Of a DNA stretch of 64,000 nt, positions 12,421 through 60,901 are shown piece after piece; within the stretch, counting starts at the first letter, position 1, and each line of letters opens with the position of its first letter. The notes under the pieces were generated by a model. The model had not been told where the DNA came from, did no database searches, and saw only the letters and a program-made list of their open reading frames with translations. Source of the stretch: Candidatus Daviesbacteria bacterium (lineage in GTDB: Bacteria > Patescibacteriota > Microgenomatia > Daviesbacterales > UBA10151). The stretch spans positions 482,634 to 546,633 of the forward strand of contig JAQTZF010000001.1 of NCBI GenBank assembly GCA_028687915.1. Reading direction: 5' to 3'. Position numbers and translations under genes: made by a program.

Positions 12421-12422
12421 TC

Positions 12423-20748: not shown

Positions 20749-20751
20749 TTA

Positions 20752-22636: not shown

Positions 22637-22682
22637 CATTCATTAAAAGACATATATATAATCTGTCCAATAAGTAAATTCC

Positions 22683-30522: not shown

Positions 30523-30524
30523 AG

Positions 30525-43488: not shown

Positions 43489-45165
43489 ATGATTGATTAT
43501 TACATAATAATTATATTTCTTTCAATTACCTGTTATCATAATAGGGTGAAAATTCTTTTAAGAAGCCATATTATATTTTTCATCTGTATTTCTTTATTCT
43601 GCTTACTTTTATTTAAGGATATCTTTTCAGAGAGAACCCTGATTCCAAACCTCGAGCCTTTTCCTGATAGTATTTATTATGTGGGAGGAGCTAAGAGTTT
43701 ATTGAGCGGCAATGGATTAAATATTGTTCGGGAAGGAAGATCTTTAGCCCTTATTGTGCCCCCTCTGTATCCATTGCTATTAGTCCCGATGTATCTTATT
43801 AACAGCGATGTCAGGATGTTTTATTTTACGAATATTGTGTTTGCTCTTTCATCCTTTTGCATTTTTTATCTTATTTTAAGGAAATTAGTTGGCAACCCAC
43901 TAATTAAAGCCTTTGTATTAATCCTCTATGTTACTAATTATGATTTATATTGGTTTCCAAACCTCGCAATGGCAGAAAACTTAACTTTACTACTCTCGCT
44001 CACTGGTATATTGTTACTTTTAGCTAAAGTTAATTTATTTAATATAATCGCTGCTGGAATATTGGTAGTAAGCTTTTATGCTACAAAGTATGCAAGTGTT
44101 CCTTTAGTAATATCTTTTTTTATTGCTTATTTTATTAAGTTATTTTTACTTTGGCGAGGCAAACAATTTAAATTTGAGAAGTTCATTGTCTTTTTATCTA
44201 GCACATTAATTACATTTATTATATTTTGTTTTTATGAATATTTATCTAAAGGTAGCTTTCCGTTAAGCTCGTTGGTAAGTTTTGGGACAAGTTTAAGTAA
44301 TAAGAGTACAGCGCAAGTAACTTCTTCTACCACTTTTTCTCTTGCGTATGTAGATATAAACATAAGGCATTATTTAAACGCTTTGACAGGTGGATCCGAG
44401 AGATTTCTTTGGGATTCGACACCAATAGTGCCAAAGTTTGTTGCAATAGGAGGACTTTTAGGTTTAGTTATTGGATTAATTAAAGTTAATCTACGTTTTA
44501 TATGTTTTAGCTTCTTGCTAATAATATTAAGTTCAATACTGTTTATGTCGACATTTTACACTACTGATATGCGCTATATTTATCAGGTTATTCCAATATT
44601 GCTTTTAGGATTTGCTATATTATTAACACTTGCTCTAGATTATAGTAATAAAAAATTGTTTCGTTATTGCGTTATTTTTATAGTTTCAACGTTATTTTTA
44701 TACTACGGATTAACAAATGTAATTAGAATTAAAAGTCAAATAAGTTTAAATTTAAGATATACAGAAACACCTTGGTATTATGTTAATGTTTTAGAATTAA
44801 ATAAATTCTTTGCTACTCCTACTCAATCGTTGACTGGTAAAAAGCCTGTTGTGATATCTCCGATGGCTCCATATTATGTAGACTTTTTCTCTAATGGTAA
44901 CTATACACTTTTGCCATTGTCTGTACAGCAAGAATTTAGAAGCTACAAAGAGAATGCCTGGGGACTAAATGATTATAGTGATTTAATTAAACTTTATAAA
45001 AAGTATTTACAAGAAGGATATATATTATATTTAGCTAATTATGGCTTGGGAAATGAGGGGTATTTGCATAGTGATTTTGATGCTATTAAAAAGATTTTTA
45101 AAGTAACAGAGGTTTCAGTTGGTTGTTATAATGCGTGTAATATCTATAGAGTAGAACTTCAGTAA
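43489..45165 (+). CDS. large polytopic membrane protein, GT-C-like
   Basis: 558 aa with at least 12 TM helices. Its start codon lies 3 nt from the divergent start at 43485. Confidence 0.4.
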   Translation: MIDYYIIIIFLSITCYHNRVKILLRSHIIFFICISLFCLLLFKDIFSERTLIPNLEPFPDSIYYVGGAKSLLSGNGLNIVREGRSLALIVPPLYPLLLVPMYLINSDVRMFYFTNIVFALSSFCIFYLILRKLVGNPLIKAFVLILYVTNYDLYWFPNLAMAENLTLLLSLTGILLLLAKVNLFNIIAAGILVVSFYATKYASVPLVISFFIAYFIKLFLLWRGKQFKFEKFIVFLSSTLITFIIFCFYEYLSKGSFPLSSLVSFGTSLSNKSTAQVTSSTTFSLAYVDINIRHYLNALTGGSERFLWDSTPIVPKFVAIGGLLGLVIGLIKVNLRFICFSFLLIILSSILFMSTFYTTDMRYIYQVIPILLLGFAILLTLALDYSNKKLFRYCVIFIVSTLFLYYGLTNVIRIKSQISLNLRYTETPWYYVNVLELNKFFATPTQSLTGKKPVVISPMAPYYVDFFSNGNYTLLPLSVQQEFRSYKENAWGLNDYSDLIKLYKKYLQEGYILYLANYGLGNEGYLHSDFDAIKKIFKVTEVSVGCYNACNIYRVELQ

Positions 45166-45175
45166 AATTATTAAT

Positions 45176-47065
45176 ATGGAGAATTTTACTGAAGCCTTAA
45201 AATTTTTAATTGGAATAATTTTTACTATTTTAGTAGGGAATTCGCTAATCTCCTGGATTGAAAGAAAGATTACTCCCGGCATAATTTTGATTTCTGTAAT
45301 ATTAGGGCTTGTAACAATTTCTTTAGCATATTTATTCCTTACTTATTTTAAAATACCCTTTTTTCTAATTAACATTATTTTAGCTTTGTTTACCTTTGTA
45401 AGTATATATATGTTTAAGCCAAAGCTGGTATTGCAGTTTAGAGATGTAATTTTGACACTTTCTTTTATTTTAATTGGGACAGTTTTATTAAACAGCAAGT
45501 TAATTTTTGAGGGGTTTGATAAGTACGGAGGATTTTTGTTAAGTAAAGGTAATATTGATGCTTTATGGCATATTGCCCTTCAAGAATCTCTAAAAATATC
45601 AGTGCCTCCTCAAAGCCCATTGTATTCCGGACAGATTTTAACGGGTTATCATTATTTAAATGATATTTATTGGGTGTGGTTTAGTAAAATTTTAGGTATA
45701 TCAACAATTAACCTGTGTATATTTTGGGCTCCGCTATTTATATCTTCATTATTTGTAGCTACTACATTACTAGTGATGATAAAGATATTTAAAGATAAAA
45801 AAAATGCTTTTATTGCTTCAGGTGTAGTTGTTTTTACATCAAGTTTGTCGTTTATTGCTCCACTATTTTTCCCTAATGCTGGTTTTCATCAATCTGTTTT
45901 TTGGTTGGATCAACCAACTTACTATATTTTTAATCAGCAGTTAACATTATCAATTGCAGTTATAAATTTAATAATATTTCTTTTTCTTAGCTCTCTAAAA
46001 AAGTGGTGGTGGGTAATTGGTTTATTAGTTGGTAGTTTAGCTGGGGTAAAAGTTTATGGTTTACTTATTATTTTCCCTGCAATTTCTATAATTGGTTTCT
46101 ATCTATGGCAAAAGCAAAGAGATTGGAATTACTTTGGTATGATTTTACTTTCTGTATTAATTTCTATATTTATAGTTTTAATTGAAGGTCCAAGTAATGG
46201 TTTTCCTTTCTACTTTGATCCCGGTTTGTTAGTCAAATCAATGTTTGATGATCCGCTTAGATTAAATTACCCTGCATGGGAGATTAATCGTCTTGCTTTG
46301 GTTGAACAGCATAATTGGATTAAGCTATTTTATCAGTGGAGTAAAGGTGTAGTAATTTTTTTAATCGGAAACTTTAATCTGAAAATTTTAGCATTAATAT
46401 TTCTCCCGGCTTTACTAAAAAATAAAAGTTTATCTAAAGATAATAAAATTATTCTATTACTTTCAAGTGTGGTTATTTTGCTAAGTCTAAGTTCTGGTCT
46501 TCTTCTTTCACAAAAAGCAGTTACATGGAACGTTGTACAATTCCTTGTATATGCGCAGCTTCCTTTAGTAGTAATATTGGTTTTTAGTGTAATAACCTTT
46601 TTTAGCAAAAGAAACCAAATCATAATTTTTTTAGTGATATTCTTAGTAGGGGTTCCCTCATCCTTTCATCCAATTAAGTACTATTCTAATATTAATTCAT
46701 ATATTTATTATCCACCTGAATTAATTCAGGTTTTACAGGAAGTTAAAGCTCTCCCGTCTGATGCTCAAATTATTGTAGGTGAAAGATATTATATTAACAG
46801 TTTTGTTCCAGCATTTAGTGCTCATGGTGTTTATTTGGCAGATATTAATGTACTTGAGTTATTACTTCCCTTTAGTGCAAAAGAAAGGATTGAGTATGTT
46901 AAAAAGTTAGAAAACAGGGAAATTGAATGTAAATTAAATCAGTATCTTTTGTCAGATAAAAATTATAAATCAAATAATTTATCAAATAATAACTTTCAAT
47001 TTATTGTGATTTACAAGCGAAATAATATTACTCTTTTTAAATGTGTAAAAAAACTAGTTTACTGA
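45176..47065 (+). CDS. large polytopic membrane protein, GT-C-like
   Basis: 629 aa; at least 13 TM helices; ~150 aa C-terminal soluble region. Confidence 0.4.
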   Translation: MENFTEALKFLIGIIFTILVGNSLISWIERKITPGIILISVILGLVTISLAYLFLTYFKIPFFLINIILALFTFVSIYMFKPKLVLQFRDVILTLSFILIGTVLLNSKLIFEGFDKYGGFLLSKGNIDALWHIALQESLKISVPPQSPLYSGQILTGYHYLNDIYWVWFSKILGISTINLCIFWAPLFISSLFVATTLLVMIKIFKDKKNAFIASGVVVFTSSLSFIAPLFFPNAGFHQSVFWLDQPTYYIFNQQLTLSIAVINLIIFLFLSSLKKWWWVIGLLVGSLAGVKVYGLLIIFPAISIIGFYLWQKQRDWNYFGMILLSVLISIFIVLIEGPSNGFPFYFDPGLLVKSMFDDPLRLNYPAWEINRLALVEQHNWIKLFYQWSKGVVIFLIGNFNLKILALIFLPALLKNKSLSKDNKIILLLSSVVILLSLSSGLLLSQKAVTWNVVQFLVYAQLPLVVILVFSVITFFSKRNQIIIFLVIFLVGVPSSFHPIKYYSNINSYIYYPPELIQVLQEVKALPSDAQIIVGERYYINSFVPAFSAHGVYLADINVLELLLPFSAKERIEYVKKLENREIECKLNQYLLSDKNYKSNNLSNNNFQFIVIYKRNNITLFKCVKKLVY

Positions 47066-47110
47066 CACATAATAATTATGCTAATCTTCCAAGAATGAAA
47101 GGTAATATTT

Positions 47111-47893
47111 ATGACTTTTTTATATGATTGGTTTAGTAACAATATTCCTGTATGGGAAAAGGCATTAAAAAGATTCAGAAACAAAGAGAATTTACTTTTT
47201 CTGGAAATCGGATGTTTTGAAGGTAAGGCCACTTTATGGTTGGTAGAGAATATACTGACTCATCCTACCTCTAAGATAGTTGTCGTGGATACGTTTCAGG
47301 GAGGAGAAGATCAGATTTACTTCGGTGTACAAACAAATAATTTACTATCAAAGTTTAAAACTAATCTAAAGAGTTATATTTCTAAAAATCCTAAAACTAG
47401 TAAGGTTATTATTAAAAAAGGTTTTTCTGGTAAAGTCTTAAGATCACTGAATGATCACTTCGACTTTATTTATATCGATGGTTCTCATATTGCAAAAGAC
47501 GTGTTGGAAGATATTGTATTGAGCTGGGGTTTGCTAAAGGATGATGGGGTAATGGTATTTGACGATTATGGTTGGGATCGTTATAAAGATGAGACTTTAA
47601 ACCCAAGACCTGCAATAAATTGTTTTCTAAGAATATATAAAGGTTGGTATAAAATTTTAAATTCTGGTTATCAATTAACAGTACAAAAAAAAGATAAAAA
47701 AAGTTCTATGGATAAATTTACCAAAACAACATATGAAAATTTAGTTTTAACTGATACTTTTTTTAAAGAACAAATAAATAAGCAGGTGGATTCAATTAAA
47801 TTTATGAAAGTTATCAAAGACTCTAAATTTTATAAATTATGGAGAATTTATTGTAACTTAAAGGATACGCTGAAAATTAATAAATATAAATGA
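47111..47893 (+). CDS. class I SAM-dependent methyltransferase (Methyltransf_24-like)
   Basis: LEIGCFEGKATLW and FIYIDGSHIAKDV. The C-terminal tail SKFYKLWRIYCNLKD is shared with 34566..35534. Confidence 0.55.
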   Translation: MTFLYDWFSNNIPVWEKALKRFRNKENLLFLEIGCFEGKATLWLVENILTHPTSKIVVVDTFQGGEDQIYFGVQTNNLLSKFKTNLKSYISKNPKTSKVIIKKGFSGKVLRSLNDHFDFIYIDGSHIAKDVLEDIVLSWGLLKDDGVMVFDDYGWDRYKDETLNPRPAINCFLRIYKGWYKILNSGYQLTVQKKDKKSSMDKFTKTTYENLVLTDTFFKEQINKQVDSIKFMKVIKDSKFYKLWRIYCNLKDTLKINKYK

Positions 47894-48705
47894 CACAAAA
47901 ATATATACTCACAAATTATGGTTACTATAAGAATATTAAGACAAAAAAGTTGCCGTATGATAAAGGTTACATACAAAAAAGAAATAATACTGATGTAGTT
48001 TTTTATAAGAAGAGAAAAGATATATTAAGGCGGGATTTTCAAAAAAAATTATTACCGATTGTAATTAAAGCAAAAGAAATATTTTGTGAAGACTTAAGGA
48101 TTCTTGATATTGGATGTGGGGATGGTGTTGTTTTAGAATCATTATTTGATATTGGACGCACACAAAAGATTAAGATTAAGCTTTACGGAATTGATCCGGA
48201 TAATTTTGCGTTTAAAGATATTCGGGTATCAGCCAAGCTTACGAAAGGAGTGTCAGAAAAAATGCCATATGATGACAGTTTCTTTCATGTGGTGATCTCA
48301 AGTCAAATGATAGAACATTTAACAGAAATACAGACAGATAAGACAAACAAAGAAACTTTAAGGATTTTGAAAATGAGTGGTTTTTACTATATTGAGACTC
48401 CAAATCCACAAAGCAGTTTAGCCAAAACAAAGAAAAGTCGGTGGCAGATGTTTTTACCAGATCATTTAGTGCTATATCCTCCAAATGCTTTAGCAGTTTT
48501 ATTAAAGAATGTTGGTTTTAGAGATATTAAAGCTGGTGCTAGGTATGAAAAAGACGAACAGATTAATGAAATACAAGATACGTTTATAAGTAGATTTCCT
48601 TTTGCAAAAAATCAGCATATTGCTAGAATAGGCATGTTTTTGTTTAAGATTTACATTATGGTTTCAAACAATGGAGCAATTACCTGTGTTTTGGCTAGAA
48701 AATAA
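47890..48705 (+). CDS. class I SAM-dependent methyltransferase (Methyltransf_11-like)
   Basis: ILDIGCGDGVVLESL motif I. Confidence 0.6.
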   Translation: MTQKYILTNYGYYKNIKTKKLPYDKGYIQKRNNTDVVFYKKRKDILRRDFQKKLLPIVIKAKEIFCEDLRILDIGCGDGVVLESLFDIGRTQKIKIKLYGIDPDNFAFKDIRVSAKLTKGVSEKMPYDDSFFHVVISSQMIEHLTEIQTDKTNKETLRILKMSGFYYIETPNPQSSLAKTKKSRWQMFLPDHLVLYPPNALAVLLKNVGFRDIKAGARYEKDEQINEIQDTFISRFPFAKNQHIARIGMFLFKIYIMVSNNGAITCVLARK

Positions 48706-48727
48706 TTAGATTTTTTATTTTAAATTT

Positions 48728-49687
48728 ATGAAAAAAAGAAAAAAAATAATTTTATGTGGATCTATTGCAATCGACCGGATAATGAATTTTTCTGGTAAGT
48801 ATAAAGATCTGTTTAAATTAACTAATAAAGAAATACTTTCAATTAGTGTTTTTTTATCAAATCTTAAAAACAATCATGGAGGAGTTGGTGCAAATATTGC
48901 TTATACACTAGCACTGCTTGGGGAAAAACCAATTTTAGTAGGATCAGTAGGTAAAGAAGCTGAAGGCTATTTAGAAAAGCTTTCAGCTTTGGGTATAGAT
49001 ACTAGAAATATTCACCGTAGTTTATTGGAAACGGCTTCTTTTAATGTAATTACAGATAGTGCAAACAATCAAATTGGAGGTTTTTATCCAGGGGCTATGT
49101 TTGATAGCGACTCTCAAACCCTTAATAAATGGGCAGGCAAGGACGTTTTAGTGGTAATTTCTCCTCATGATCCAAAGGCTATGAAACGTCAAATAGAGGA
49201 GTGTTTTAAAAATAAATTTCAGATGTTTTATGACATAGGTCAACAGGTATTAAATACCTCTAAAGAGGACTTGATTTTCGGGCTTAGTAAAGCTCAAATT
49301 TTAATACTAAATGAATTTGAAATGAAAGCACTTTGTAGTAAAACAAAAAATTCCATATCTTCCTTAAAATCTAGAATTCCTCTTGTTATTACAACGCTTG
49401 GTGAGGAAGGGTCAATTATTGAAGGAAAAAATATTTCTAAAAAAATTAGAATTAAATCTGTAAGAATAGATGAAGTCGTTGATCCTACAGGAGCAGGAGA
49501 TGCTTATAGGGCTGGTTTTCTGTATGGATTTGCGCGCGATTGGGACTTAAAAACTTGTGGACAAATGGGTAGTCTGGCTGCTTCCTGCACAATCGCACAT
49601 CACGGAACACAAGAACATTTATTTACTAAGGAAGAATTTAGTAATAAATATGAGGATTGTTTTGAAGAAAAGTTATTGTTAATATAG
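48728..49687 (+). CDS. PfkB-family carbohydrate/nucleoside kinase (adenosine-kinase-like)
   Basis: [16 protein letters not shown] matches the PfkB signature 2. Adjacent to ahcY. Confidence 0.65.
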
Positions 49688-49697
49688 CAAAACAAAT

Positions 49698-50993
49698 ATG
49701 AGTAAAAATGATTATAAAGTAAAAGATATCAAGTTAGCCAAATGGGGGAGAATGGAAATAGTTTTGGCAGAAAAAGAAATGCCAGGATTAATGAGCTTAA
49801 GAAAAGAATTTGGAAAATCTAAGCCTCTTAAGGGTGCTCGTATTGCAGGTTCTTTACATATGACAATTCAAACTGCAGTACTTATTGAGACTTTACAGGC
49901 TCTTGGTGCAGAGGTCAGATGGTCATCTTGTAATATTTTCTCAACTCAAGATCATGCAGCGGCGGCGATAGCTGCTAAAGGCACGCCAGTTTTTGCGTGG
50001 AAAGGTGAAACAGAAAAAGAATATTGGTGGTGCATTGAACAGTCTCTAAAGTTTGCAAAAGGGAAGGGACCAAATATGTTGTTGGATGATGGAGGGGATT
50101 TAACAAGTTTTGTCCATGAAAAATACCCAGAAATGTTAGAAGATATTAAAGGTGTTTCTGAGGAAACAACCACAGGAGTTCATCATCTTTACCAAATGTT
50201 AAAAGAAGAGAAACTAAAAATTCCTGCTATTAATGTTAATGATAGTGTTACTAAGTCTAAGTTTGATAATTTGTATGGTTGCAGAGAGTCTTTGACTGAT
50301 GGAATAAAAAGGGCTACAGATATTATGCTTGCTGGAAAGCAGGCTGTTGTGGCTGGCTATGGGGATGTAGGTAAGGGTAGTGCTGAATCGCTTAGGGCCT
50401 TTGGTTGTAGAGTAATGATTACAGAAATTGATCCAATTTGTGCTCTTCAAGCTTTGATGGCTGGGTATAGTGTAGTTACTATGGAAACTGCTGTAAAAGA
50501 AGCTGATATTTTTGTGACTGCTACAGGATGTAAAGACATTATTACTTTAGAACATATGTTAAAAATGAAAGACACTGCAATTGTGTGTAATATAGGTCAT
50601 TTTGATGTTGAAATTCAAATGGATCAGCTAAATAAATACCCAAAGATTAAGAAAGAAGAAATTAAGCCACAGGTTGATTTGTATACATTTCCTGACGGAC
50701 ATAGAATTATTGTTTTAGCTGAGGGTAGACTGGTGAATTTGGGTTGTGGTACAGGACATCCCTCATTTGTAATGTCTAACTCATTTACTAACCAGGTTTT
50801 GGCACAAATAGAATTATTTACTAAAAATTATGAGGTTGGAGTATACAGACTACCTAAACATCTTGATGAAAAGGTAGCAAGTTTACACTTGGAACAATTG
50901 GGTGCCAAGTTAACGAAGCTTAATAGTGATCAGGCAGAATATTTAAATATTCCTAAGGGTGGTCCTTTTAAATCAGATCATTATCGTTATTAA
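49698..50993 (+). CDS. ahcY: adenosylhomocysteinase (S-adenosyl-L-homocysteine hydrolase)
   Basis: [21 protein letters not shown]...[18 protein letters not shown]...[13 protein letters not shown]. Closely resembles eukaryote/bacterial type AhcY and carries an NAD-binding domain. Confidence 0.9.
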
Positions 50994-51088
50994 TCCCTCT
51001 TAACAACTCCCTCAGATAATATTAAGATATTATATGAGGACTGGAGGTAAATATTTTTCAAAGCTTAATAAGGAATAAGTTTATTCTT

Positions 51089-52201
51089 TTGTCCTATATC
51101 TTTTGGTTATTATTTCTATTATCTACCCTGTCTATTGGTAATAAGGTGTTGCTTTATAGATCAGGTCAGGAGTTTACTAATATTTTAAAGACAACAACAC
51201 CTGAGTCTTTTGTCACCTCTCCCTTAATTTATCCATGGGCAAACTTTGATGGTGTCCATTACATAGAAATCGCTAAATTTGGGTATACTACAGAAGCAGG
51301 CTTTTTTCCTTTATATCCAATTCTAATAAAAATTCTCAGTCTTTTTATTGGTAATTATTTTATAGCTGCAATATTAATTTCTAATACTTCTTTCGTAGTT
51401 GGTTTAATATTTTTTCATAAACTAATAAAGCTGGATTATCCTAATAAAATTGCAAATCAGGCAATAATATTTTTGTTAATATTCCCTACATCTTTTTTCT
51501 TTGCTGCTGCATATAGTGAAAGTCTTTTTTTAGCTTTACTTATGTCATGTCTATATTTCACCAGAAAAAGAATGTGGTTTTTGGCTAGCATATTGGGGTT
51601 GCTTTTATCTTCAACAAGAATAGTTGGAATTTTAATATTACCAGTCCTGTTTTGGGAATTTTATACTTTGGAAAAAACAAATTTTAAAAATATATCTCTT
51701 AAACTGATATCACTTTTTTTAGTTCCACTAGGATTACTTTCTTATATGATATTCAATTACATTCACTGGGGAAATTTCATGTATTTTATTAAGGCTCAGG
51801 GTATGTTTAGTAATAATAGAAGTGTAGATCAGGTGATATTATTTCCTCAGACACTTTTTCGTTATTCCAAAATAATTGCAACAGTGCCATATCAACAATA
51901 TGAATGGTGGATTGCACTAGTTGAGTTAAGCTTAACATTTTTTGTTTTGACTTTATTGTTATTTGGATTTAAACAAAGAATGAGGATTTCCTATTTAATT
52001 TTTAGTATTTTAGTATTGCTTCTACCTATATCATCAGGTACATTAAGTGGTATGCCAAGGTATGTATTAATGACGTTTCCAATATATATAACAATTGCCT
52101 TGTTTAAAAATAAGTATTTAAAAATTACTTACTTTATATTGTGTTTATTTTTATTAACAATATTATGGACATTATTTACTAAAGGATATTATGTGGCCTA
52201 A
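51089..52201 (+). CDS. polytopic membrane protein, GT-C-like (PIG-V/DUF2029-like), paralog of 2217..3368
   Basis: WANFDGVHYIEIAKFGYTTEAGFFPLYP. TTG start inferred, no in-frame ATG; AGGA sits 14 nt upstream. Confidence 0.45.
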   Translation: MSYIFWLLFLLSTLSIGNKVLLYRSGQEFTNILKTTTPESFVTSPLIYPWANFDGVHYIEIAKFGYTTEAGFFPLYPILIKILSLFIGNYFIAAILISNTSFVVGLIFFHKLIKLDYPNKIANQAIIFLLIFPTSFFFAAAYSESLFLALLMSCLYFTRKRMWFLASILGLLLSSTRIVGILILPVLFWEFYTLEKTNFKNISLKLISLFLVPLGLLSYMIFNYIHWGNFMYFIKAQGMFSNNRSVDQVILFPQTLFRYSKIIATVPYQQYEWWIALVELSLTFFVLTLLLFGFKQRMRISYLIFSILVLLLPISSGTLSGMPRYVLMTFPIYITIALFKNKYLKITYFILCLFLLTILWTLFTKGYYVA

Positions 52202-53630
52202 TAGATTTAATATTATTATTGTAACTTTGCTAGCTTTATTAATTAGATTGATAAGTTTAAATCAAAGTTTATGGTGGGATGAGGCTATTAATGTTGTATA
52301 TGCAAGACAAAGTGGCTTTTTATGGTTTATTACAAGATATCCGTTAGGTGATTTTCACCCCCCTGGTTGGTTTGCACTTCTTTGGAGTTGGGGAAATTTA
52401 TTTGGCTGGTCAGAAGTATCTGTAAGAATGCCGTCAGTTCTTTTTGGGGTAGGTGCTGTTTATGTAACTTACCTAATAGGTGAGAAGCTTTTTTCAAAGA
52501 AGATTGGGCTGCTTTCAGCTTTGATGTTAGCGTTTGCCCCCTTACATATATATTATTCACAAGAAGCAAGAATGTATGCTTTTGGTGCGTTTGCAGTAAC
52601 ATTTTCCATTTACAGTTTAGTGAGGTTTATTAAAGAAGAAAAATATAGTTTTATGTTTTTTGCCTTATCAGTAGCTTTAGTTTTGTATTCGGATTACGTT
52701 ACATACTTTATTTTTCCTGTTTTGTTTATCTATATGATGTGTTTTTATAGGCAATTGATGGGAAGGTTTGTATCTTCATTTGCCTTTGGTATTGTTTTTT
52801 TCATTCCCTGGGTCTTTATATTTCCAGATCAATTAATGAATGGGCAGCGTACTGCTTTGTCCCTCTTGGGATGGGGGAATGTAGTTGGGGGGAGTTCTAT
52901 TAAAGAGCTTATACTTCTTCCGATTAAAGTTTTGGTAGGGAAGGTCGATTTGTACAATAATTTTTTATATGTAGGATTAATCATAGTTACAACTACGCCA
53001 TTTTTAATTACGTTTATTAAATTAAGGAAGGTTTTAGATAGTAGGTATTATCTAATTTTATTATGGTTATTGGTTACACCTATATTAGTCTGGATATTTT
53101 CTTTTATTATTCCGATATTTTCATATTTTCGTCTTTTATATATTTTACCTGCTTTTTATATTGCTGTTTCAGTTTGCCTATACAGATTTTCTAAAACTTC
53201 TTTTCAGATACTCATATTTTTTATTTTAACTTTTGAGGTGCTTCTTAGTTCTGTCTATCTTTTTAACGTAAATTATCATCGGGAAGATTGGAGAGGTGCT
53301 GTACAATTCGTTGACCAGAAAATGAATGATGATTCATTAGTTATTTTTAGAAACAGCGAAATTGCTGCGCCGTATAACTATTATAGTAGGTTCCTGCAAC
53401 TTGCAATTCCAGCATATAAGGTAGTTCCAGTTAAAACAAAAAATGATATCCAAGACTTAAACAATGTTCTACAAGGTAGGACACAAATATATTTATTTGA
53501 CTACCTTAAAGATATAACAGATCCGGACAATATACTTGAAACGTATATTGAGGAAAATAGATTTAAAAAAATATCAATAGATAATTTTAACGGTGTTGGT
53601 TTTATTACAACTTACAGAAAAAATGATTAA
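52191..53630 (+). CDS. ArnT/PMT_2-family GT-C glycosyltransferase (GT83/GT39-like)
   Basis: LISLNQSLWWDEAINVVYARQ carries the family's conserved DE motif in the first extracytoplasmic loop. Confidence 0.6.
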   Translation: MWPNRFNIIIVTLLALLIRLISLNQSLWWDEAINVVYARQSGFLWFITRYPLGDFHPPGWFALLWSWGNLFGWSEVSVRMPSVLFGVGAVYVTYLIGEKLFSKKIGLLSALMLAFAPLHIYYSQEARMYAFGAFAVTFSIYSLVRFIKEEKYSFMFFALSVALVLYSDYVTYFIFPVLFIYMMCFYRQLMGRFVSSFAFGIVFFIPWVFIFPDQLMNGQRTALSLLGWGNVVGGSSIKELILLPIKVLVGKVDLYNNFLYVGLIIVTTTPFLITFIKLRKVLDSRYYLILLWLLVTPILVWIFSFIIPIFSYFRLLYILPAFYIAVSVCLYRFSKTSFQILIFFILTFEVLLSSVYLFNVNYHREDWRGAVQFVDQKMNDDSLVIFRNSEIAAPYNYYSRFLQLAIPAYKVVPVKTKNDIQDLNNVLQGRTQIYLFDYLKDITDPDNILETYIEENRFKKISIDNFNGVGFITTYRKND

Positions 53631-55152
53631 GAATGTAACTAAAAAAGTAAATATTGGTATATTTTTGATTTTTTTGTTGGCTGTAATAATTAGATTTTTA
53701 TACTTTCCAAACAATGTTTATTTTGGGTATGATCAGGCAAGGGATGCTTATACTGTACAGGAGATATTAAGTGGACAGTTAAAAATAGTTGGACCCCCTT
53801 CAGCTGACGGAGTATTCCATCATGGTGTTTTGTACTATTATATTTTTGCATTTTTTTATTTTATCTCAGGAGGTGATCCGGCAGCCGTAGCAGCATTTCT
53901 AAGGATTTTTAATGCTATGGGCGTATTTATACTTTACCCGATTGTGGTCATCTTATTTGGAGAAATAGCAGCTTTTTCCGCAATTATTTTATATGCTGTT
54001 TCTTATGAACAAACACAATTCTCACTTTTTCTTAATCATCCGTCCTTAGTGGTTATATCTGTGCTCTTCTTTTTCTTCGGTTTAGCTAATTGGATCTTCA
54101 GAAAGAAGAATTGGGGATTTTGGATAGCGCTTCTGGGAATGGGTTTTTCTATCCAATTTCAATTTATAGAGGTTCAACTAATACCAGTATTTATACTGTT
54201 CCTCATAGTATTTAGAAAAAAAATAAGACTAAGATTTAATAAGAGCCTATTGATAGGCATGTTAGCTTTTATATTGCCTCTGTCTACATATATTATTTCA
54301 GAGATAATTCATCGTTTCTTCGTGTCAAAACAAATCTTAAACTTTTTTTATAATCACGAGAAGGCTAGTTCTGTATCTATAAGTTTTTCTAAATTTAGCT
54401 TTTTTATCACAAGGCATATACACGATAATCTTATATCTAATAATATCGGTAGTATAATATTGGCTGTAATTCTATTATTTTTATTTATTAAGTTTATATT
54501 TAAGAGTAAATATAAGGAATATCTGCTTTTTATTTTGGTATGGTTTGCAGGTGGATTTTTAATATACTTTTTTACAGATAATGATGCATATTACTATAAT
54601 ACAGGAACATCACTAGCTCTTCTTATATTTGTTTCTTTTCTAGTTAGTAAACTTTACATATTTAGAAAATGGTTAGCTTTTTTAATTTTGATTTTAATAT
54701 TTTTTTCAAATGTCTTTTTAATTACTAAGAATAATCCTTTTGGACCTAATGAAAGAATTAATCCACAAAAAGGCCTTACCTTAGAGGATGAGAAAAGAAT
54801 AGTAGATTTTATATACCAGAAAGCTTCAGATAAAGCATTTAGCGTTAATGCACTGACAATGCCCTACAATGTTAATACAACCTGGAGTTACCTTTTTGAA
54901 TGGTATGGTAAGAAAAGATATGGTTATGTTCCTGTTTGGGGTGGTGATGCAGCTTCTGGTTATTACGGAAGCTTAAAAGTTAATACTGCCCGAAGCACTC
55001 TACCACAAAAACGTTTTTTAATAATTGAACCAAAAGAAGGAATTCCTTTGTATTTAGTAACCAGCTTTTTAGAAAATGAAAGTATATATAGCACTGTTAA
55101 AGAAAAGCATAAAGTTGGAACGATGGAAGTTTGGGTTCAAGAAGCAAAGTAA
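53623..55152 (+). CDS. polytopic membrane protein, GT-C-like (paralog family B)
   Basis: YFGYDQARDAYTVQEILSGQLKIVGPPSADGVFHHGVLYYY, paralogous to 55168..56718. The ATG at 53623 gives an 8-nt overlap. Confidence 0.4.
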   Translation: MIKNVTKKVNIGIFLIFLLAVIIRFLYFPNNVYFGYDQARDAYTVQEILSGQLKIVGPPSADGVFHHGVLYYYIFAFFYFISGGDPAAVAAFLRIFNAMGVFILYPIVVILFGEIAAFSAIILYAVSYEQTQFSLFLNHPSLVVISVLFFFFGLANWIFRKKNWGFWIALLGMGFSIQFQFIEVQLIPVFILFLIVFRKKIRLRFNKSLLIGMLAFILPLSTYIISEIIHRFFVSKQILNFFYNHEKASSVSISFSKFSFFITRHIHDNLISNNIGSIILAVILLFLFIKFIFKSKYKEYLLFILVWFAGGFLIYFFTDNDAYYYNTGTSLALLIFVSFLVSKLYIFRKWLAFLILILIFFSNVFLITKNNPFGPNERINPQKGLTLEDEKRIVDFIYQKASDKAFSVNALTMPYNVNTTWSYLFEWYGKKRYGYVPVWGGDAASGYYGSLKVNTARSTLPQKRFLIIEPKEGIPLYLVTSFLENESIYSTVKEKHKVGTMEVWVQEAK

Positions 55153-55167
55153 TGTAGAATAATATTT

Positions 55168-56718
55168 ATGAAGATATTTAAAATTATTGTTTTTATATTA
55201 ATTATTTTTAATATATTTTTGGCATCTCGTTGGGCAATTGACGGAAATCTTTTCTTTCACACAGATATTGCAAGAGACTTTTTATTAATTGAAGATATTG
55301 TTAGTAATAAACATTTGACTTTAATTGGTCCTAGATCAGGTGCTATTCCTGGCGTGTTTCATGGACCGCTATGGTTATATTTAAATGTTCCCGCTTTTGT
55401 TTTGGGTAATGGTAATCCAGCTATTGTTGCATGGTTTTGGGTAGTTTTGTATTTATTCAGTCTTGTTTTTATATATTATGCTGGTAAAAAGATTTTTGAT
55501 GAGAAAACTGGTTTACTTAGTGCTTTAATGCTTTCTTCCGCAACTGTTTTACAAGTTAGGTCTGCTTTTAATCCATATGGAGCTATGCTGCTTTTGCCTT
55601 TATATTTATATGCTTTCTCCGTTTACCTTAAAAATAAAAATGTGAAAGTTTTGATTTTATCTTTTTTTATTTTAGGTTTAATTATTCAGTTTCAAATGGC
55701 TTTTGGAATACCAATTCTAGTTATAACTATGATTTATTTATGTTGGTTTTTATTGAGTGTACATAAAATTAGACATATTTTTTCTTCCCTGGTTTTAGCA
55801 ATACCTTTATCTACCTTTTTCTTGTTTGATATTCGTAATAATTTTTTACAAGTCCGATCTGTAATAAATTATTTAACAGGGGTTGAAAATCACGGCAAAA
55901 TAGATTTGAACTTTTCTCAGCTTGCCAGTCTTCGTTTTCAGGAAAGTATATTGGCAGGACTCGGTGAAATTACATTACATCAGAATATTTTGACTATATT
56001 TTTAGTTTTATTTTTATTAATTACATTACTTATTCTCATCAAAAACAAACAATTATTAATCATTCACAAATTATTTATATTCTTTTATGGGGGGTTTTGG
56101 TTATTAACATTTTTATTTAAGGGTCCAATTTGGAACTATTACTATACTCCGTTTATCCCTATGATAATCTTAGTTTTCTGTTCTCTACGTAAAGTACTAG
56201 ATCAAAAAGTTTTTTATTTTATTTTTGCTTTAATTTTTATATTTAACTTTCAATCAAATTTTAAAGATATTATTTCATATAATCCAAACGCCAAAGATCA
56301 GGACACAAGCACTTGGAAATTTAATTATCTTGTGGCAGAAAAAAGTTTTTCCGGACGTGAAAAAGAATTTGGGTTTTATATATTTACACCTGATTTATAT
56401 GGTTATTCACCACGTTATGCAATGAATTATTATCAAAAAATTACAAAGGATAAAAAATCATATCCATTTGATAAGAAACAGATTACCTATTTATTAATTG
56501 CTCCTCCTCCAGAATATGGTAAGGATCCAAATAGTATTTGGTATCAAAAAAATATTAATAGTGATACATGGAAAAATAATGATGTAAGAATTAATAAGAA
56601 CGCAGATGAAGTAACAAGTTTTTCAAATGGTTTTAAATTAGAAAAATATATACTTAGTGACACTTTGGTAAAAGTCCAATCTAATCAATTCCTTATACAG
56701 TCAATATTTTTTAGATGA
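55168..56718 (+). CDS. polytopic membrane protein, GT-C-like (paralog family B)
   Basis: FFHTDIARDFLLIEDIVSNKHLTLIGPRSGAIPGVFHGPLWLY. Confidence 0.4.
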   Translation: MKIFKIIVFILIIFNIFLASRWAIDGNLFFHTDIARDFLLIEDIVSNKHLTLIGPRSGAIPGVFHGPLWLYLNVPAFVLGNGNPAIVAWFWVVLYLFSLVFIYYAGKKIFDEKTGLLSALMLSSATVLQVRSAFNPYGAMLLLPLYLYAFSVYLKNKNVKVLILSFFILGLIIQFQMAFGIPILVITMIYLCWFLLSVHKIRHIFSSLVLAIPLSTFFLFDIRNNFLQVRSVINYLTGVENHGKIDLNFSQLASLRFQESILAGLGEITLHQNILTIFLVLFLLITLLILIKNKQLLIIHKLFIFFYGGFWLLTFLFKGPIWNYYYTPFIPMIILVFCSLRKVLDQKVFYFIFALIFIFNFQSNFKDIISYNPNAKDQDTSTWKFNYLVAEKSFSGREKEFGFYIFTPDLYGYSPRYAMNYYQKITKDKKSYPFDKKQITYLLIAPPPEYGKDPNSIWYQKNINSDTWKNNDVRINKNADEVTSFSNGFKLEKYILSDTLVKVQSNQFLIQSIFFR

Positions 56719-58577
56719 TGTTTAAAAGAGCTGTTATTGGATTATTGATAATATCTTCTTTTTTATTTGTAAATCCTCATAAGACTGATGCGCAGCAAAA
56801 TAATATTAATTGTTCAAATCGTTTTGTGACAGCTGTTAATCCTGTAAGGTCTAGGCAATTATGGATAGATAAGACATTGAAGCCAATACAAGATCAATAT
56901 AATTTAGTTGTAAATAATAATTTTCCTACCACCTGGTTAATACAAAACGATGTGCTTTATGATGATGAACTTTTAAATAAAATTAAGTCTTTTAATAGAA
57001 CCCAAGAATTTGGATTGTTGCTCGAAGTATCTGATCAGTTAGCTAAAAATGCCAGAGTTCTCTATCCTCCTTTTGTGCCTTGGTATAATCCAAAAGCAGT
57101 TTTCTTATCAGGTTATACTCAATCAGAGAGGCGTCTTTTAATAGACAAAATGTTTAAGGATTTCTTTCAAATTTTTGGATATTATCCCAAGAGTGTTGGT
57201 GCTTGGTGGATTGACTCATATTCATTGGATTATTTAAAAGAAAAATATGGAGTTACAGCAGCCTTAATAGTTGCCGATCAAAGAAATACAGATAGCTATG
57301 GTGTTTGGGGACAATGGTGGAGTGTTCCTTATTTTCCATCTAAAGCAAACATACTTACTCCTGCAAGTTCTTTAACTAATAAGCAACCAATTACAATTTT
57401 ACAATGGGCTCAGCGTGATCCTGTGCTTGCTTATGAGGCAGATTATCATTCGAGTTATTCATTACAGGCAAATGATTATACTTTGCTTGGTAAAGATATT
57501 AATTATTTTAAGAATTTAGTAAATGTCTATTTGGATTGTCAAAATAGGGTAGGACAAATCACTATTGGTTTAGAAACTGGAATGGAGAGCATAAGAAGTC
57601 TTCCTGAATATGAAAGACAACTACAATATTTAAAATCTATAAATTTTCTTAATCCTGTAACTATGTCTCAATTTGCAGAACAATATTCCAGGATTTATCC
57701 GGAATATCAAAAAGAATCTACAGTATCTTACTTGGGGTATACATGGAAGTTAACAACATCCGGTCGGGATAATGATAAATTAAATGAACATATAAAATAT
57801 CAGCAAGATTTAGCATTCCAGGATTATTTTCTTCCTAGTCAAAGCAGCTTTTTAGATCGAAAACTACCAATTAGTAATACTATCTCAAATTCTGGTCCAT
57901 TATATCTTTATATTGGAACGTTTGTTTTTTGGGGTGTTTTCTTATTTATAAGAAGAAAAGTTAAGCTTCTTTTTGTAAGCACTCTATTTGTAATTGCATC
58001 TTTTGGTTTGATATTAAGATCCACTATGCAATTTGGGTGGTTTGTGTTTTATGGACCGGTTATAAAAGATTTACCAGTACTTCAGCTTGTAATAACTTTT
58101 TTTGGTTATTTACTTATCTTCTTTATTGATCGTTTTTTGCCCAAGGATTTAAGAAAATACCTTTATCTAATTCCTCTAACTTTTGGGCTGGACAGCGTAG
58201 TTCATTATTTAAGATTTAGTTTTATTTCTAATAGATACTATTTGGGAATTCTTACTGATGCTTTTCATTTCTTTGGAATATCTTTTGAAAAACCATTTAT
58301 TTTTTCTTTAGTTAATCAGGATCTTCCATCTTATCAGGCAGTTGCGTTATTACACTTTGATTATAATTTGGTTTGGCAAAATTTTTGGTTTGCAATAATT
58401 GCATTTCCACTTGTTCATCTAATTTTGGCATTAATTTTAGGATTATTTTTAAGACTGCTTTCTGCCAGGATTAGGATATTTATTATTACTATTTTAATTA
58501 TGCTCTTGACCTTGTATTTGTTTAACATGTGGTTATCAGATCCACGTGCAGCCGTAATTTCTGCTACAATTAAATGA
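56715..58577 (+). CDS. secreted/anchored protein: signal peptide + ~380 aa extracytoplasmic domain + C-terminal multi-TM domain
   Basis: MMFKRAVIGLLIISSFLFVNPHKTDAQ signal-like N-terminus; Trp-rich soluble domain; 5-6 C-terminal TM helices. Confidence 0.35.
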   Translation: MMFKRAVIGLLIISSFLFVNPHKTDAQQNNINCSNRFVTAVNPVRSRQLWIDKTLKPIQDQYNLVVNNNFPTTWLIQNDVLYDDELLNKIKSFNRTQEFGLLLEVSDQLAKNARVLYPPFVPWYNPKAVFLSGYTQSERRLLIDKMFKDFFQIFGYYPKSVGAWWIDSYSLDYLKEKYGVTAALIVADQRNTDSYGVWGQWWSVPYFPSKANILTPASSLTNKQPITILQWAQRDPVLAYEADYHSSYSLQANDYTLLGKDINYFKNLVNVYLDCQNRVGQITIGLETGMESIRSLPEYERQLQYLKSINFLNPVTMSQFAEQYSRIYPEYQKESTVSYLGYTWKLTTSGRDNDKLNEHIKYQQDLAFQDYFLPSQSSFLDRKLPISNTISNSGPLYLYIGTFVFWGVFLFIRRKVKLLFVSTLFVIASFGLILRSTMQFGWFVFYGPVIKDLPVLQLVITFFGYLLIFFIDRFLPKDLRKYLYLIPLTFGLDSVVHYLRFSFISNRYYLGILTDAFHFFGISFEKPFIFSLVNQDLPSYQAVALLHFDYNLVWQNFWFAIIAFPLVHLILALILGLFLRLLSARIRIFIITILIMLLTLYLFNMWLSDPRAAVISATIK

Positions 58578-59593
58578 TGAAGGTTGGTTTTGATATTTCT
58601 CAGATAGCATATAGAGGTGGGGTGGTAACTTATACAAAAAGTCTAGCGAAAGAATTACAAAAGAATCCTCAACTTGATATGAAGTTTTTTTATGCTTCAC
58701 TGCGAAAGCCTTATCAGGGTAGTTTAGCTAATGTAAAAAATTTTAAAATACCCAGTTCTTTATCTGAAATATTTTTTAATAGAATCAGAATGACCCCTAT
58801 TGAGAGATTTCTTGGACCAATTGATATTTTTCATTCTTCAGATTGGATTCAACCACCAACGAAAGCAAAAAAAGTAACCACCTATCATGATGTTGTACCT
58901 TTGAAATATCCTCAATGGTCAACCCCAAAAATAGTTGAAGTACATAAAAGAAGATTAAAAATTGTAGAAAAAGAAATTGATATGGTAATTGCTGTCTCAA
59001 ATGCTACAAAAAAAGATCTTTTAGAAAATTCTATTATTCCAGAAGAGAAAATAAGGGTTATTTATGAGGCTGCAGATGCTAAATTTAAGCCACAAGATAA
59101 AAGTGAAATTGAAGCTTTTAAGAGAAAGCTGAAGTTACCGGAGGGTTACGTTCTGGCTATTGGTGGAGTGGGAGAAAGAAGAAATTTAGATAGAATTAAA
59201 GAAGCCTCAAAAGGCTATAATCTGGTTATTACAGGAGAAACGATTCCATGGTTATCGGATGATGATTTACCTCTACTATATGCAGGAGCTAGTGTTTTAT
59301 TATATCCCTCTTTTTATGAAGGTTTTGGTTTGCCAATATTGGAGGCTATGAGTTGTGAAACTCCTGTAATTACTTCAAATATATCATCAATGCCTGAAGT
59401 TGGAGGGGAAGCAGCCCTTTCTGTTAATCCTGAAGATGAAAATGAAATAAAGAAAAGGTTAAAGCAGGTAATAGAGGATAGTGATTTGAGAACGCAGTTA
59501 ATTAAGAAAGGGCTTGAGCAAGCAAAGAAATTCTCCTGGGAAAAGTGTGCAAAAGAGACTTTTGAAATTTACCAGCAATTAACAAGGGTATAA
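58574..59593 (+). CDS. glycosyltransferase family 4
   Basis: YEGFGLPILEAMSCETPVITSNISSMPEV, near-identical to the motif in 1157..2215. Confidence 0.75.
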   Translation: MMKVGFDISQIAYRGGVVTYTKSLAKELQKNPQLDMKFFYASLRKPYQGSLANVKNFKIPSSLSEIFFNRIRMTPIERFLGPIDIFHSSDWIQPPTKAKKVTTYHDVVPLKYPQWSTPKIVEVHKRRLKIVEKEIDMVIAVSNATKKDLLENSIIPEEKIRVIYEAADAKFKPQDKSEIEAFKRKLKLPEGYVLAIGGVGERRNLDRIKEASKGYNLVITGETIPWLSDDDLPLLYAGASVLLYPSFYEGFGLPILEAMSCETPVITSNISSMPEVGGEAALSVNPEDENEIKKRLKQVIEDSDLRTQLIKKGLEQAKKFSWEKCAKETFEIYQQLTRV

Positions 59594-59635
59594 CTTGCAA
59601 GAGTTTTAAGCGGGATGAAATAGAGACACTATAGT

Positions 59636-60901
59636 ATGAGTTTAAAGAATAATTGGAAAATATACTTAATATTATTAGTGACTTTTTCTATAGTCATATT
59701 TATCAGATTTTATAACTTTAGTAATAGAATTAATTTTGGTCCTGAACAAGCAATTTCCTTAATTACTACCGGTGAATATATTAAAGATAAAATTACTCTG
59801 ATTGGATTACCTTCTACTCAAAGAGTAACATCAACAGGTCATATTATTTTTTCCAGCCCTATATTTAATTACGCTTTAATTCCATTGGAATTAATATTTA
59901 ATTTTGATCCAATTTTAATAACTGGTTATTTTGCACTATTAAATATTATCACAGGATTAATTATTTATTTGTTAACTAAGAAAATATTTTCGGTGCAAGT
60001 AGCTCTTTTTGCAGTCATTTTATTTTTGTTTAATGGTTATATGATTTATCATTCTTTGTTTATTTGGATTGTAAATTATTTGCCCCTTTTAGGTCTTTTG
60101 ACTATATATTTATTGTTTCTTTTTAGGCAAAAGAATAGAAAAATATTTTCATTGGCTTTGGGCTTAATTTCTGGAATTGCTTTTGGGACAGAATACCTCT
60201 ATTTATTTACTGCAGTTTTTGTTCTATTGTTTTTAATCTATTATTCAAAAAATAAATTTAAAGATTTTATTATTTTTATGTTAGGTTTTGCTGTTGGCAA
60301 TTTACCTCTCATTCTTTTTGATTTGAAACATAACTTTTATTATTTTGGCACCCTGTATCAGTATTTAATTGATACTATTAATTCTCCGGGTCAAAGTAAA
60401 CTTTCTTATTATCACTTTTTACAATTTTGGCCCCTACTTACTATAATTGGAGGTGTTATTTTATATAAAATTTTTCGAATAAATAAGTATATAGCATTAT
60501 TATTAATAGCACTCTATATTTTTATGAATTTAACTTCACCTTTAGTAAGTTTTAACGAAGCTGTTGGTATGAATAAGGGTTTAAACTATAATTTGTTAAA
60601 TAAGGCTGCTCAAATCATTGCAGATAATAAACCTGAAAAATTTAATGTTGCAACTACCTGGGATTTTGACAGTCAAGCACATCCGTTGCGCTATCTATTA
60701 AGATTTCGTTATGAAATGATACCTTTAGGTATTGAAGAATACAGAAATGCTGATAATATCTATGTTATGACAAATCCAACATATGATATTAACAATGCAT
60801 CTCTTTATGAAATTTCTAGTTTTAGACCATTTAAGACTGAATTGCTCACAAATTTAAGTAATGATTATAGTGTTTTTAAATTGAATCACTTAAATAAATA
60901 A
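59636..60901 (+). CDS. polytopic membrane protein, GT-C-like
   Basis: 421 aa; NFGPEQAISLITTGEY loop; about 11 TM helices. Confidence 0.35.
   Translation: MSLKNNWKIYLILLVTFSIVIFIRFYNFSNRINFGPEQAISLITTGEYIKDKITLIGLPSTQRVTSTGHIIFSSPIFNYALIPLELIFNFDPILITGYFALLNIITGLIIYLLTKKIFSVQVALFAVILFLFNGYMIYHSLFIWIVNYLPLLGLLTIYLLFLFRQKNRKIFSLALGLISGIAFGTEYLYLFTAVFVLLFLIYYSKNKFKDFIIFMLGFAVGNLPLILFDLKHNFYYFGTLYQYLIDTINSPGQSKLSYYHFLQFWPLLTIIGGVILYKIFRINKYIALLLIALYIFMNLTSPLVSFNEAVGMNKGLNYNLLNKAAQIIADNKPEKFNVATTWDFDSQAHPLRYLLRFRYEMIPLGIEEYRNADNIYVMTNPTYDINNASLYEISSFRPFKTELLTNLSNDYSVFKLNHLNK

Follow-up and report, generated by a model that had tools for sequence, protein, structure and literature searches.

The combination of a lipid-phosphate sugar synthase, a flippase and a GT-C glycosyltransferase represents a paradigm that has been experimentally established elsewhere (PMC11127046). 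In the three-component systems built on it, such as GtrA/GtrB/Gtr*, ArnC/ArnT, CsbB/GtcA/YfhO and the pentofuranose systems of PMC11127046, a GT2 synthase is encoded beside one GT-C enzyme, the latter has a conserved acidic residue in its first loop, and the modules lie beside genes for Wzx- or ABC-dependent glycans. Two GT-C families are of particular relevance here, namely PMT_2/GT39/GT83 (ArnT, bacterial Pmt) and PIG-V/GT76 (GPI mannosyltransferase 2). We know of no GPI pathway in bacteria, so the acceptor of bacterial PIG-V-like proteins must differ from GPI.

Mycobacteria and corynebacteria have a more elaborate system, in which aftA, embCAB and aftB are clustered genes. Here, the assembly of arabinogalactan and LM/LAM (Emb, AftA-D, PimE, Mpt) involves many GT-C enzymes working in series outside the membrane with polyprenol-phosphate sugars, the mycobacterial lipoglycans being made by such enzymes from polyprenol-phosphate mannose (PMC3485146).

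The locus described here belongs to a MAG of Candidatus Daviesbacteria, a lineage of Microgenomates within the candidate phyla radiation (CPR). It shares with the three-component systems the acidic first-loop residue, the adjoining GT2 synthases and the setting among Wzx- and ABC-dependent glycan genes. Contrary to those systems, with their one GT-C, it brings together in a single island ten GT-C genes from no fewer than six distinct families, the window lacks a GtrA-type flippase and has a DUF2304 protein alone, and the core gene order is kept across species, without strain or prophage variation. It also differs from the mycobacterial system: at the sequence level its proteins do not belong to the Emb or Aft families, the genome is that of a CPR bacterium and measures about 1.1 Mb, the GT-C genes are more densely packed (seven in 17 kb) and the methyltransferase complement is strong.

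The GT-C array

The window, by which we mean the whole 64-kb stretch analysed, encodes ten GT-C-type polytopic proteins, which account for 10 of its approximately 56 genes and 24% of its DNA; seven of them lie in a 17.4-kb run (43489-60901). It forms the core of an island of at least 76 kb, i.e., about 7% of the genome, which continues past the window, where a 486-aa Wzy_C-like protein and one more GT-C, the eleventh (492 aa, PMT_2/PMT), are encoded. A sequence-only reading of this DNA had proposed about ten GT-C proteins, six or seven of them within 17 kb. All of the open reading frames it listed were found where it had placed them and the counts hold, except that the protein at 56715, included there as a possibility, is not a GT-C. 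The same reading called the density exceptional. This holds by comparison with common O-antigen or teichoic-acid loci, which usually have far fewer GT-C genes, but not within Microgenomates, where 4-9 such genes per 21.6 kb are normal around the 43489 ortholog.

For each of the ten candidates there is a link to GT-C, be it a Pfam match, paralogy, the fold or a profile comparison. Their hydropathy profiles contain 8-14 hydrophobic peaks, with a first TM segment followed by a loop of 50-90 aa, except at 45176, where the long gap comes after the fourth helix; most end in a non-TM tail of 116-156 aa. Two AlphaFold models, those of 43489 and 45176, have about 13 TM helices, and the polytopic topology that had been claimed is borne out. 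Similarity to solved GT-C enzymes is seen at the structural level, AftA, AftB, AftD and PimE being among the matches. PDB sequence profile searches with the 45176, 43489, 38554 and 56715 families gave no usable match.

The first-loop acidic motifs previously pointed out are present as FDGVHY (2217, 51089), WWDEA (52191), YDQARD (53593) and TDIARD (55168), and comparable ones occur in the other five proteins: GPEQAI (59636), DSQDG (32389), DWRDYP (38554), PFPDSIYY (43489) and NIDALWH (45176). A first-loop Asp or Glu is invariant in every orthogroup of at least six sequences; for 2217, one ortholog was available.

GT-C proteins of the PMT_2 and PIG-V families

Five of the ten proteins pass Pfam cut-offs, which are 26.1 bits for PMT_2 (PF13231) and 22.4 bits for Mannosyl_trans2 (PF04188). 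Four of these, all on the + strand, belong to PMT_2: 52191..53630 (479 aa, 50.3 bits, D30 and E31 invariant in 19/19 orthologs), 53593..55152 (519 aa, 31.9 bits, D47 and D51 in 6/6), 59636..60901 (421 aa, 28.0 bits, E37 in 7/7) and 55168..56718 (516 aa, 27.5 bits, D33 and D37 in 7/7), the last being barely over the cut-off and the lowest scores standing 1-2 bits above it. Identity between these paralogs is low, at about 25%. The remaining one is the PIG-V-like protein at 2217..3368 (+ strand, 383 aa, 8 TM peaks), with 30 bits to PF04188 in a match that spans only profile positions 17-209 of 443, i.e., the N-terminal half.

The other five (32389, 38554, 43489, 45176 and 51089) have no PMT_2 match in Pfam, and nothing significant in direct Pfam and NCBIfam scans. 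Of them, 51089..52201 (+ strand, 370 aa) is a PIG-V-like paralog of 2217 (38% identity, E 1e-57), with D54 invariant in 15/15 orthologs; it has no PF04188 match of its own at E<=0.1, and its ortholog in the related locus L003 has a weak one. The earlier assignment to the ArnT/PMT/PIG-V type is right for six of the ten, as PMT_2/ArnT-type and PIG-V-type proteins, while the other four tie to GT-C by homologs, profile or fold.

The protein at 32389..34479 (- strand, 696 aa), where a domain of about 240 aa precedes the last TM helix, reaches the PMT_2 superfamily as a divergent member through distant homologs. With this protein as query, exhaustive phmmer searching recovered 809 relatives (E<=1e-3); among 39 sampled, 20 match PMT_2 and 9 match PMT. 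Its D28 is kept in 22/22 ungapped orthologs. A DE or D motif after the first TM helix is a feature that the group shares with ArnT and bacterial Pmt.

GT-C proteins outside the Pfam models

The protein at 43489..45165 (+ strand, 558 aa) represents a family without a Pfam model, with a C-terminal domain of about 130 aa and invariant P57, P59, D60 and Y64, of which D60 is kept in 60/60 orthologs. When this family was compared by hhalign with the four PMT_2 paralogs of the window, aligned by themselves and hence in a shallow profile, the probability of 10% was uninformative, and a deeper profile was needed.

A rare family is represented by 45176..47065 (+ strand, 629 aa), with about 13 TM helices and a C-terminal domain of about 120 aa, which appears closest overall to oligosaccharyltransferase subunits. 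D128 is kept in 13/13 orthologs, and A546, D556 and R571 are invariant in the C-terminal domain. From the distribution of positive-inside residues, it can be argued that its first loop would face outwards. At the sequence level, membership in the OST group proper (STT3/PglB/AglB) was rejected, since there is no Pfam match at E<=0.1 and no WWDxG motif.

The least firm of the ten assignments is the candidate GT-C at 38554..40284 (- strand, 576 aa), a DUF6311-type protein with invariant W34 and D36 in its DWRDYP motif, placed by profile-profile comparison only. D36 is kept in 28/28 orthologs. In hhalign, its family pairs with the 32389/PMT_2-like profile at 94.7% probability (E 6e-8), with the 43489 family at 57% and with the 45176 family at 32%. 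Many of its homologs carry a precomputed match to PF19830 (DUF6311), which we take to be a member of the GT-C clan, and the current Pfam copy gives nothing on 38554 or on 38 homologs; a literature search on DUF6311/PF19830 found nothing.

The public gene models of two of these enzymes appear truncated, and would lack TM helix 1 together with the loop that is putatively catalytic.

The 56715 protein

The protein at 56715..58577 (+ strand) combines a signal peptide with an exported, conserved domain (about 370 aa) and a TM bundle at the C-terminus. In hhalign, its probability stays below 7% with every GT-C profile used, which excludes it from the GT-C proteins and makes this TM-rich family a negative control for the profile comparison. 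No PDB entry matches it by profile, and DUF3863 yields only sub-threshold matches, in 5/11 members. At least 11 genomes have an ortholog within the run, and the family is a conserved partner of the run without a family assignment.

Putative donor synthases, transporters and other island genes

The companion genes that the sequence-only reading had described, three putative polyprenol-phosphate sugar synthases, a Wzx flippase and an ABC exporter, are all present, judging by Pfam and by solved relatives. Three GT2 proteins have dolichol-P-mannose synthase (DPMS), GtrB or ArnC as their closest characterised relatives at the sequence level, and each adjoins a GT-C gene (2217/3356, 38554/40904 and 42757/43489). 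The candidate synthase at 3356..4024 (+ strand, 222 aa, Glycos_transf_2) has the dolichol-P-mannose synthase 5mlz as best solved relative (E 3e-13, residues 3-219), followed by ArnC and GtrB. Likewise, the DPMS-like protein at 42757..43485 (- strand, 242 aa), encoded divergently from the 43489 GT-C gene, is closest to 5mlz (E 8e-16, residues 3-222). The third putative synthase, at 40904..42097 (- strand, 397 aa), is GtrB/ArnC-like and has a C-terminal TM domain besides Glycos_transf_2 (PF26629 GT2_TM_C on the called gene); ArnC 9hwj (E 2e-12) and GtrB 5eke align with it over about 290 residues, including the TM part. These three neighbours are circumstantial evidence that the GT-C proteins may use polyprenol-phosphate-linked donors.

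The 3356 gene is followed by that of a small DUF2304 membrane protein (4021..4365, + strand, 114 aa, PF10066 66 bits), the third gene of a module of GT-C, GT2 and small membrane protein; we speculate that it might have a role in flipping the lipid-linked donor. Transport functions are represented by a Wzx-type flippase of 528 aa with 12-14 TM helices (26355..27941, - strand; Polysacc_synt 87 bits, Polysacc_synt_3, MurJ) and by an ABC-2 exporter (29761..31307, - strand), composed of an ATPase (29761-30522, ABC_tran) and a permease (30525-31307, ABC2_membrane). On the + strand, Pfam further identifies two SAM methyltransferases, a PfkB-family kinase and an S-adenosylhomocysteine hydrolase (47111..50993), a cytoplasmic GT4 glycosyltransferase (58574..59593; Glycos_transf_1, Glyco_transf_4), and a GT4 (60901-62049) followed by a GT2 (62049-62954) at 60901..62954, where the island goes on. 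No priming phosphoglycosyltransferase was identified among the window genes.

Conservation in related genomes

Around the orthologs of 43489 in 45 related loci, GT-C genes number 1-9 per 21.6 kb, with a median of 4; arrays of this kind are typical of the lineage. For the core paralogs, 1:1 positional orthologs occur in other genomes at 42-76% identity, whereas the paralogs within this genome are about 25% identical to each other, so they are not redundant, and recent tandem duplication as their origin is ruled out. The order 43489, PIG-V-like, two to three PMT_2 and 56715-like is repeated in loci L005, L015, L023, L050 and L069, and in most related loci the PIG-V-like gene comes directly after the 43489 ortholog. 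The divergent 42757/43489 pairing is found in 18/69 related loci, including the closest relatives checked. Among the related loci, the block made up of 45176 and the 47111..50993 genes is confined to this genome and its closest relative.

Horizontal acquisition of the island finds no support: GC content is uniform, the Pfam scans contain no integrase or mobile-element family, and synteny is conserved.

Proposed function and alternative explanations

The reading that we favour, with a probability of roughly 0.7, is that of a surface-glycan island, whose products would build or decorate a glycan outside the membrane in many steps from lipid-phosphate sugars. Nucleotide sugars would be made by cytoplasmic epimerases and dehydratases and by a nonulosonate pathway of the NeuB/NeuC/PseB-like type. 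A lipid-linked glycan would then be put together by GT2 and GT4 enzymes on the inner membrane face, and carried across the membrane by the Wzx flippase and/or the ABC-2 exporter. In a parallel branch, at least three DPMS/ArnC/GtrB-like GT2 enzymes would load single sugars onto polyprenol phosphate and, after flipping, these lipid-phosphate sugars would be used by the ten distinct GT-C-fold enzymes on the outer face, where the invariant first-loop Asp or Glu is the presumed catalytic or donor-binding residue. Every one of these enzymes would contribute its own specific residue or linkage, either to a wall- or lipid-anchored glycan as it grows or to proteins of the surface. The product may subsequently be modified by nine SAM methyltransferases, and the presence of the S-adenosylhomocysteine hydrolase inside the run is consistent with recycling of their by-product. 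The idea of an assembly line, put forward by the sequence-only reading, stands as far as protein identities and folds, acidic-residue conservation and gene order with 1:1 orthologs are concerned; what we infer are the donors and the acceptor, the flipping, and how many sequential steps there are and in which order.

A different target is conceivable for the same enzymes: they could be mainly protein glycosyltransferases, i.e., PMT-like O-mannosyltransferases together with the OST-like enzyme, decorating S-layer, pilin or adhesin proteins rather than building a polysaccharide, which we regard as unlikely. Less probable still would be a set of interchangeable serotype-converting modifiers of the Gtr type, kept for surface variation against phages or hosts and not as obligatory steps. 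Three-component GT-C modules are classic seroconversion devices (PMC11127046), the GT-C content of related loci varies as widely as described above, and the 45176 block is a lineage-specific insertion; however, the core paralogs have their 1:1 positional orthologs in a fixed order in several species, and neither the uniform GC content nor the Pfam scans give any sign of mobile elements.

The explanation with hardly any weight left is that most of these proteins would be Wzy polymerases, O-antigen ligases, SEDS proteins or transporters. Their polytopic architecture is common to such families and one Wzy_C-like protein lies just outside the window, but profile comparison does not support this identity for the ten. 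In the HMM comparison that the sequence-only reading had proposed, none of them has a match at E<=0.1 to Wzy_C, to YfhO or to any family of transporters, and no window protein matches YfhO (PF09586) or GT87 (PF09594) at that threshold, although a single distant homolog of 32389 does match GT87. As a positive control, the whole Wzy_C profile (PF04932) is matched by the 486-aa protein encoded past the window (E 2.4e-4), with an unmarked hit in the L083 ortholog of that protein. Taken with the structural comparison, the lack of Pfam matches led us to reject a Wzy, ligase or transporter identity for the ten.

Concluding remarks

CPR bacteria, whose genomes are minimal, probably live attached to other cells, and very little has been described of their surface chemistry. 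That at least 76 kb of a genome of this size are devoted to one island, with 10-11 GT-C genes and a partly conserved core order, suggests that its product is important for the lineage. Since the mechanism based on a lipid-phosphate sugar synthase and a GT-C is well known, the surprise lies in the scale and organisation and not in the principle. In the literature open to our search, no paper connects CPR or Microgenomates with GT-C, PMT_2 or mannosyltransferases; one genome paper merely counts 29 glycosyltransferase genes (PMC7143001). The analysis brings to light two GT-C families missed by current Pfam models (43489 and 45176), and identifies specific conserved residues as targets for mutation.

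As a tentative extension, which we consider rather doubtful as a whole, Microgenomates might possess a major, heavily methylated envelope glycan built mostly outside the membrane, in mycobacterial style, by a conserved and ordered battery of about ten specialised GT-C enzymes, including at least two families new to profile libraries: the widespread 43489 family and the rare, OST-resembling 45176 family, which could transfer glycan en bloc. If this were true, the island would play a central part in determining the CPR cell surface and the interactions of these bacteria with hosts or phages.

Identification of the GT-C candidates

Every open reading frame (ORF, named here by its start in the window) listed in the sequence-only reading as a glycosyltransferase of the polytopic GT-C fold is present, and the first-loop motifs cited there are found in the sequences. 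Hydropathy bears out the polytopic topology, with 8-14 transmembrane (TM) peaks per protein, and shows TM1 followed by a loop of 50-90 amino acids and, in most candidates, a C-terminal extramembrane tail of 116-156 amino acids. The comparison with known profiles, as proposed in that reading, places 52191, 53593, 55168, and 59636 above the Pfam cut-off for PMT_2, and 2217 above that for PIG-V (Mannosyl_trans2); 51089 shares 38% identity with 2217 (E 1e-57). An exhaustive search for 32389 relatives returned 809 proteins, and among 39 sampled, 20 match PMT_2 and nine match PMT. In profile-profile alignments against 32389, the families of 43489 and 45176 reach 97.4% and 76%, respectively, with their invariant first-loop aspartates (D60 and D128) aligned on D28 of 32389. 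The predicted structure of 45176 (pLDDT 83.8) has only GT-C-fold proteins among its top 20 matches (including ALG12, 18.3; AftA, 17.3; AglB, 16.9; and ArnT, 16.8). The family of 38554, many members of which have precomputed DUF6311 matches, is linked to the 32389/PMT_2-like profile by an alignment of 94.7% probability; this ORF is the least secure GT-C assignment of the set.

Contrary to its earlier listing as a possible GT-C, 56715 (56715-58577, +) was dropped, since it scores below 7% against all GT-C profiles tested. As its family is nonetheless as TM-rich as the GT-Cs, it serves as a negative control for the profile-profile links. The predicted abundance holds: the 64-kb window has 10 GT-C-type genes, of which seven fall within 43489-60901. 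The reading of the candidates as Wzy polymerases, ligases, or transporters is rejected, since a Pfam scan matched none of the 10 to Wzy_C, YfhO, or transporter profiles. The Wzy_C profile does function on this genome, where it detects a 486-amino-acid O-antigen-ligase-like protein just beyond the 3' end of the window (E 2.4e-4, under the cut-off; its ortholog in locus L083 has a Wzy_C match not so marked). After it comes an eleventh GT-C, 492 amino acids long (PMT_2 and PMT); both lie in L002 12925-15850, with additional GT2 and GT4 genes downstream as far as rsmH.

The NCBI gene models of 43489-45165 (+) and 38554-40284 (-) have shorter N-termini than the window ORFs and their homologs (458 against 558 and about 545 amino acids, and 534 against 576 and about 570, respectively), and would lose TM1 and the invariant first-loop aspartate (D60 in 43489, D36 in 38554).

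Conservation across Microgenomates

With each species represented by a single genome, a survey turned up 76 loci encoding 43489 relatives; the record titles, where informative, name Daviesbacteria, Roizmanbacteria, Woesebacteria, Pacebacteria, and other Patescibacteria. Many TPA_asm MAGs with this Microgenomates-type locus (L008-L082) have 'uncultured Gammaproteobacteria' or 'uncultured Pseudomonadales' as their record title, which looks like taxonomic mislabelling. In 45 full-length loci (about 21.6 kb), HMMs built from our alignments count a median of four GT-C-like ORFs (range 1-9), against seven in the same stretch of the source genome. The gene order 43489, PIG-V-like, two or three PMT_2, and 56715-like is repeated in several species, and the first-loop Asp/Glu is invariant in all orthogroups with at least six sequences. 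Positional orthologs of each paralog share 42-76% identity, whereas paralogs inside the source genome share about 25%; the paralogs are thus old and differentiated, and recent duplication is excluded as their origin.

In at least 11 genomes, a member of the 56715 family is encoded within the GT-C run. A signal peptide precedes an exported domain that spans about 370 amino acids and is strongly conserved, with many W, D, and E positions invariant (GAWWIDSYS, VADQ..TD.YGVWGQWW, GLETG.E); the C-terminal part is a TM bundle. The sole family signal of 56715 consists of sub-threshold DUF3863 matches.

Glycan gene content of the island

The window is coding-dense (55 ORFs of at least 150 amino acids, only seven gaps above 60 bp), with a G+C content of about 30%, and belongs to an island of at least 76 kb in a genome of about 1.1 Mb. 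The 45176 protein matches, at 100% identity, a hypothetical protein encoded on a 1,096,538-bp contig of a Candidatus Daviesbacteria MAG, and a Logan assembly contains this DNA as an 86-kb contig. According to Pfam scans, glycan synthesis is the theme of nearly all its genes, which include glycosyltransferases of GT2 (eight) and GT4 (six), epimerases and dehydratases acting on sugars, nine SAM methyltransferases, and, as anticipated, a Wzx-type flippase and an ABC-2 exporter. Two B12-binding radical-SAM enzymes (17952-19565, -; 28059-29741, +) might carry out C-methylation or another unusual sugar modification. A nonulosonic-acid (sialic/pseudaminic-like) set, here in a candidate phyla radiation (CPR) genome, occupies 17198-26346 and comprises a cytidylyltransferase, NeuB, a NeuC-like 2-epimerase, a PseB-like dehydratase, and a fused hexapeptide acetyltransferase/DegT aminotransferase.

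Three further ORFs have no clear family: 12387-13592 (+), with weak matches of alpha/alpha-barrel type only (C5-epimerase C-terminus, pectic acid lyase, GH127, LanC-like), and 15128-16450 (+) and 19576-20748 (-), with zero matches in the Pfam scan.

Proposed mechanism and alternatives

The GT2 genes 3356, 40904, and 42757, each adjoining a GT-C gene, probably encode the three polyprenol-P sugar synthases previously suggested, their best solved relatives being dolichol-P-mannose synthase, ArnC, and GtrB. A small DUF2304 membrane protein (4021-4365, +), encoded downstream of the PIG-V-like GT-C gene, overlaps the 3' end of 3356; since the window has no GtrA-type flippase, it is a candidate partner handling the lipid-linked donor. 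In the established three-component logic, a synthase of lipid-phosphate sugars works with a flippase and a GT-C transferase (PMC11127046), and the window shows the same logic multiplied about tenfold, resembling mycobacterial lipoglycan and arabinan assembly, where GT-C enzymes act in series (PMC3485146). This pairing, logic, and likeness lead us to propose an export-then-decorate pathway, in which a lipid-linked glycan would be built by GT2 and GT4 enzymes, and exported via the Wzx and/or ABC-2 system, after which the GT-C battery would extend, branch, or decorate it outside the membrane and the many methyltransferases would methylate it. The donors, the flipping, the acceptor, and the order of steps are all inferred.

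The PMT-type families among the GT-Cs could instead point to protein glycosylation, as could 45176, whose predicted structure appears by Foldseek overall nearest to oligosaccharyltransferases, with an AglB-like C-terminal domain. However, 45176 lacks both the WWDxG motif and a sequence match to STT3, and we consider a protein acceptor unlikely. This GT-C, with only 14 detectable homologs, opens a block (45176-50993, +) that also encodes two methyltransferases, a PfkB-family kinase, and an S-adenosylhomocysteine hydrolase. The block is inserted between the 43489 and 51089 orthologs, and among the loci compared it occurs only in the source genome and its nearest relative; remoter 45176 relatives likewise lie within multi-GT-C glycan loci. 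Such a lineage-specific block is consistent with GT-C genes acting as variable seroconversion modules, an idea at odds with the conserved core and, in our view, improbable. The block looks like a glycan-methylation add-on carrying its own SAM-recycling enzymes.

Concluding remarks

Our search of the accessible literature library found no paper linking CPR or Microgenomates to GT-C or PMT_2 enzymes. The enzyme class and its chemistry are already known; what is new is their organisation as a partly conserved, ordered array of at least six distinct GT-C families, taking up about a quarter of the window. Two of these families are missed by current Pfam models, and the array has a conserved, uncharacterised partner protein, 56715.
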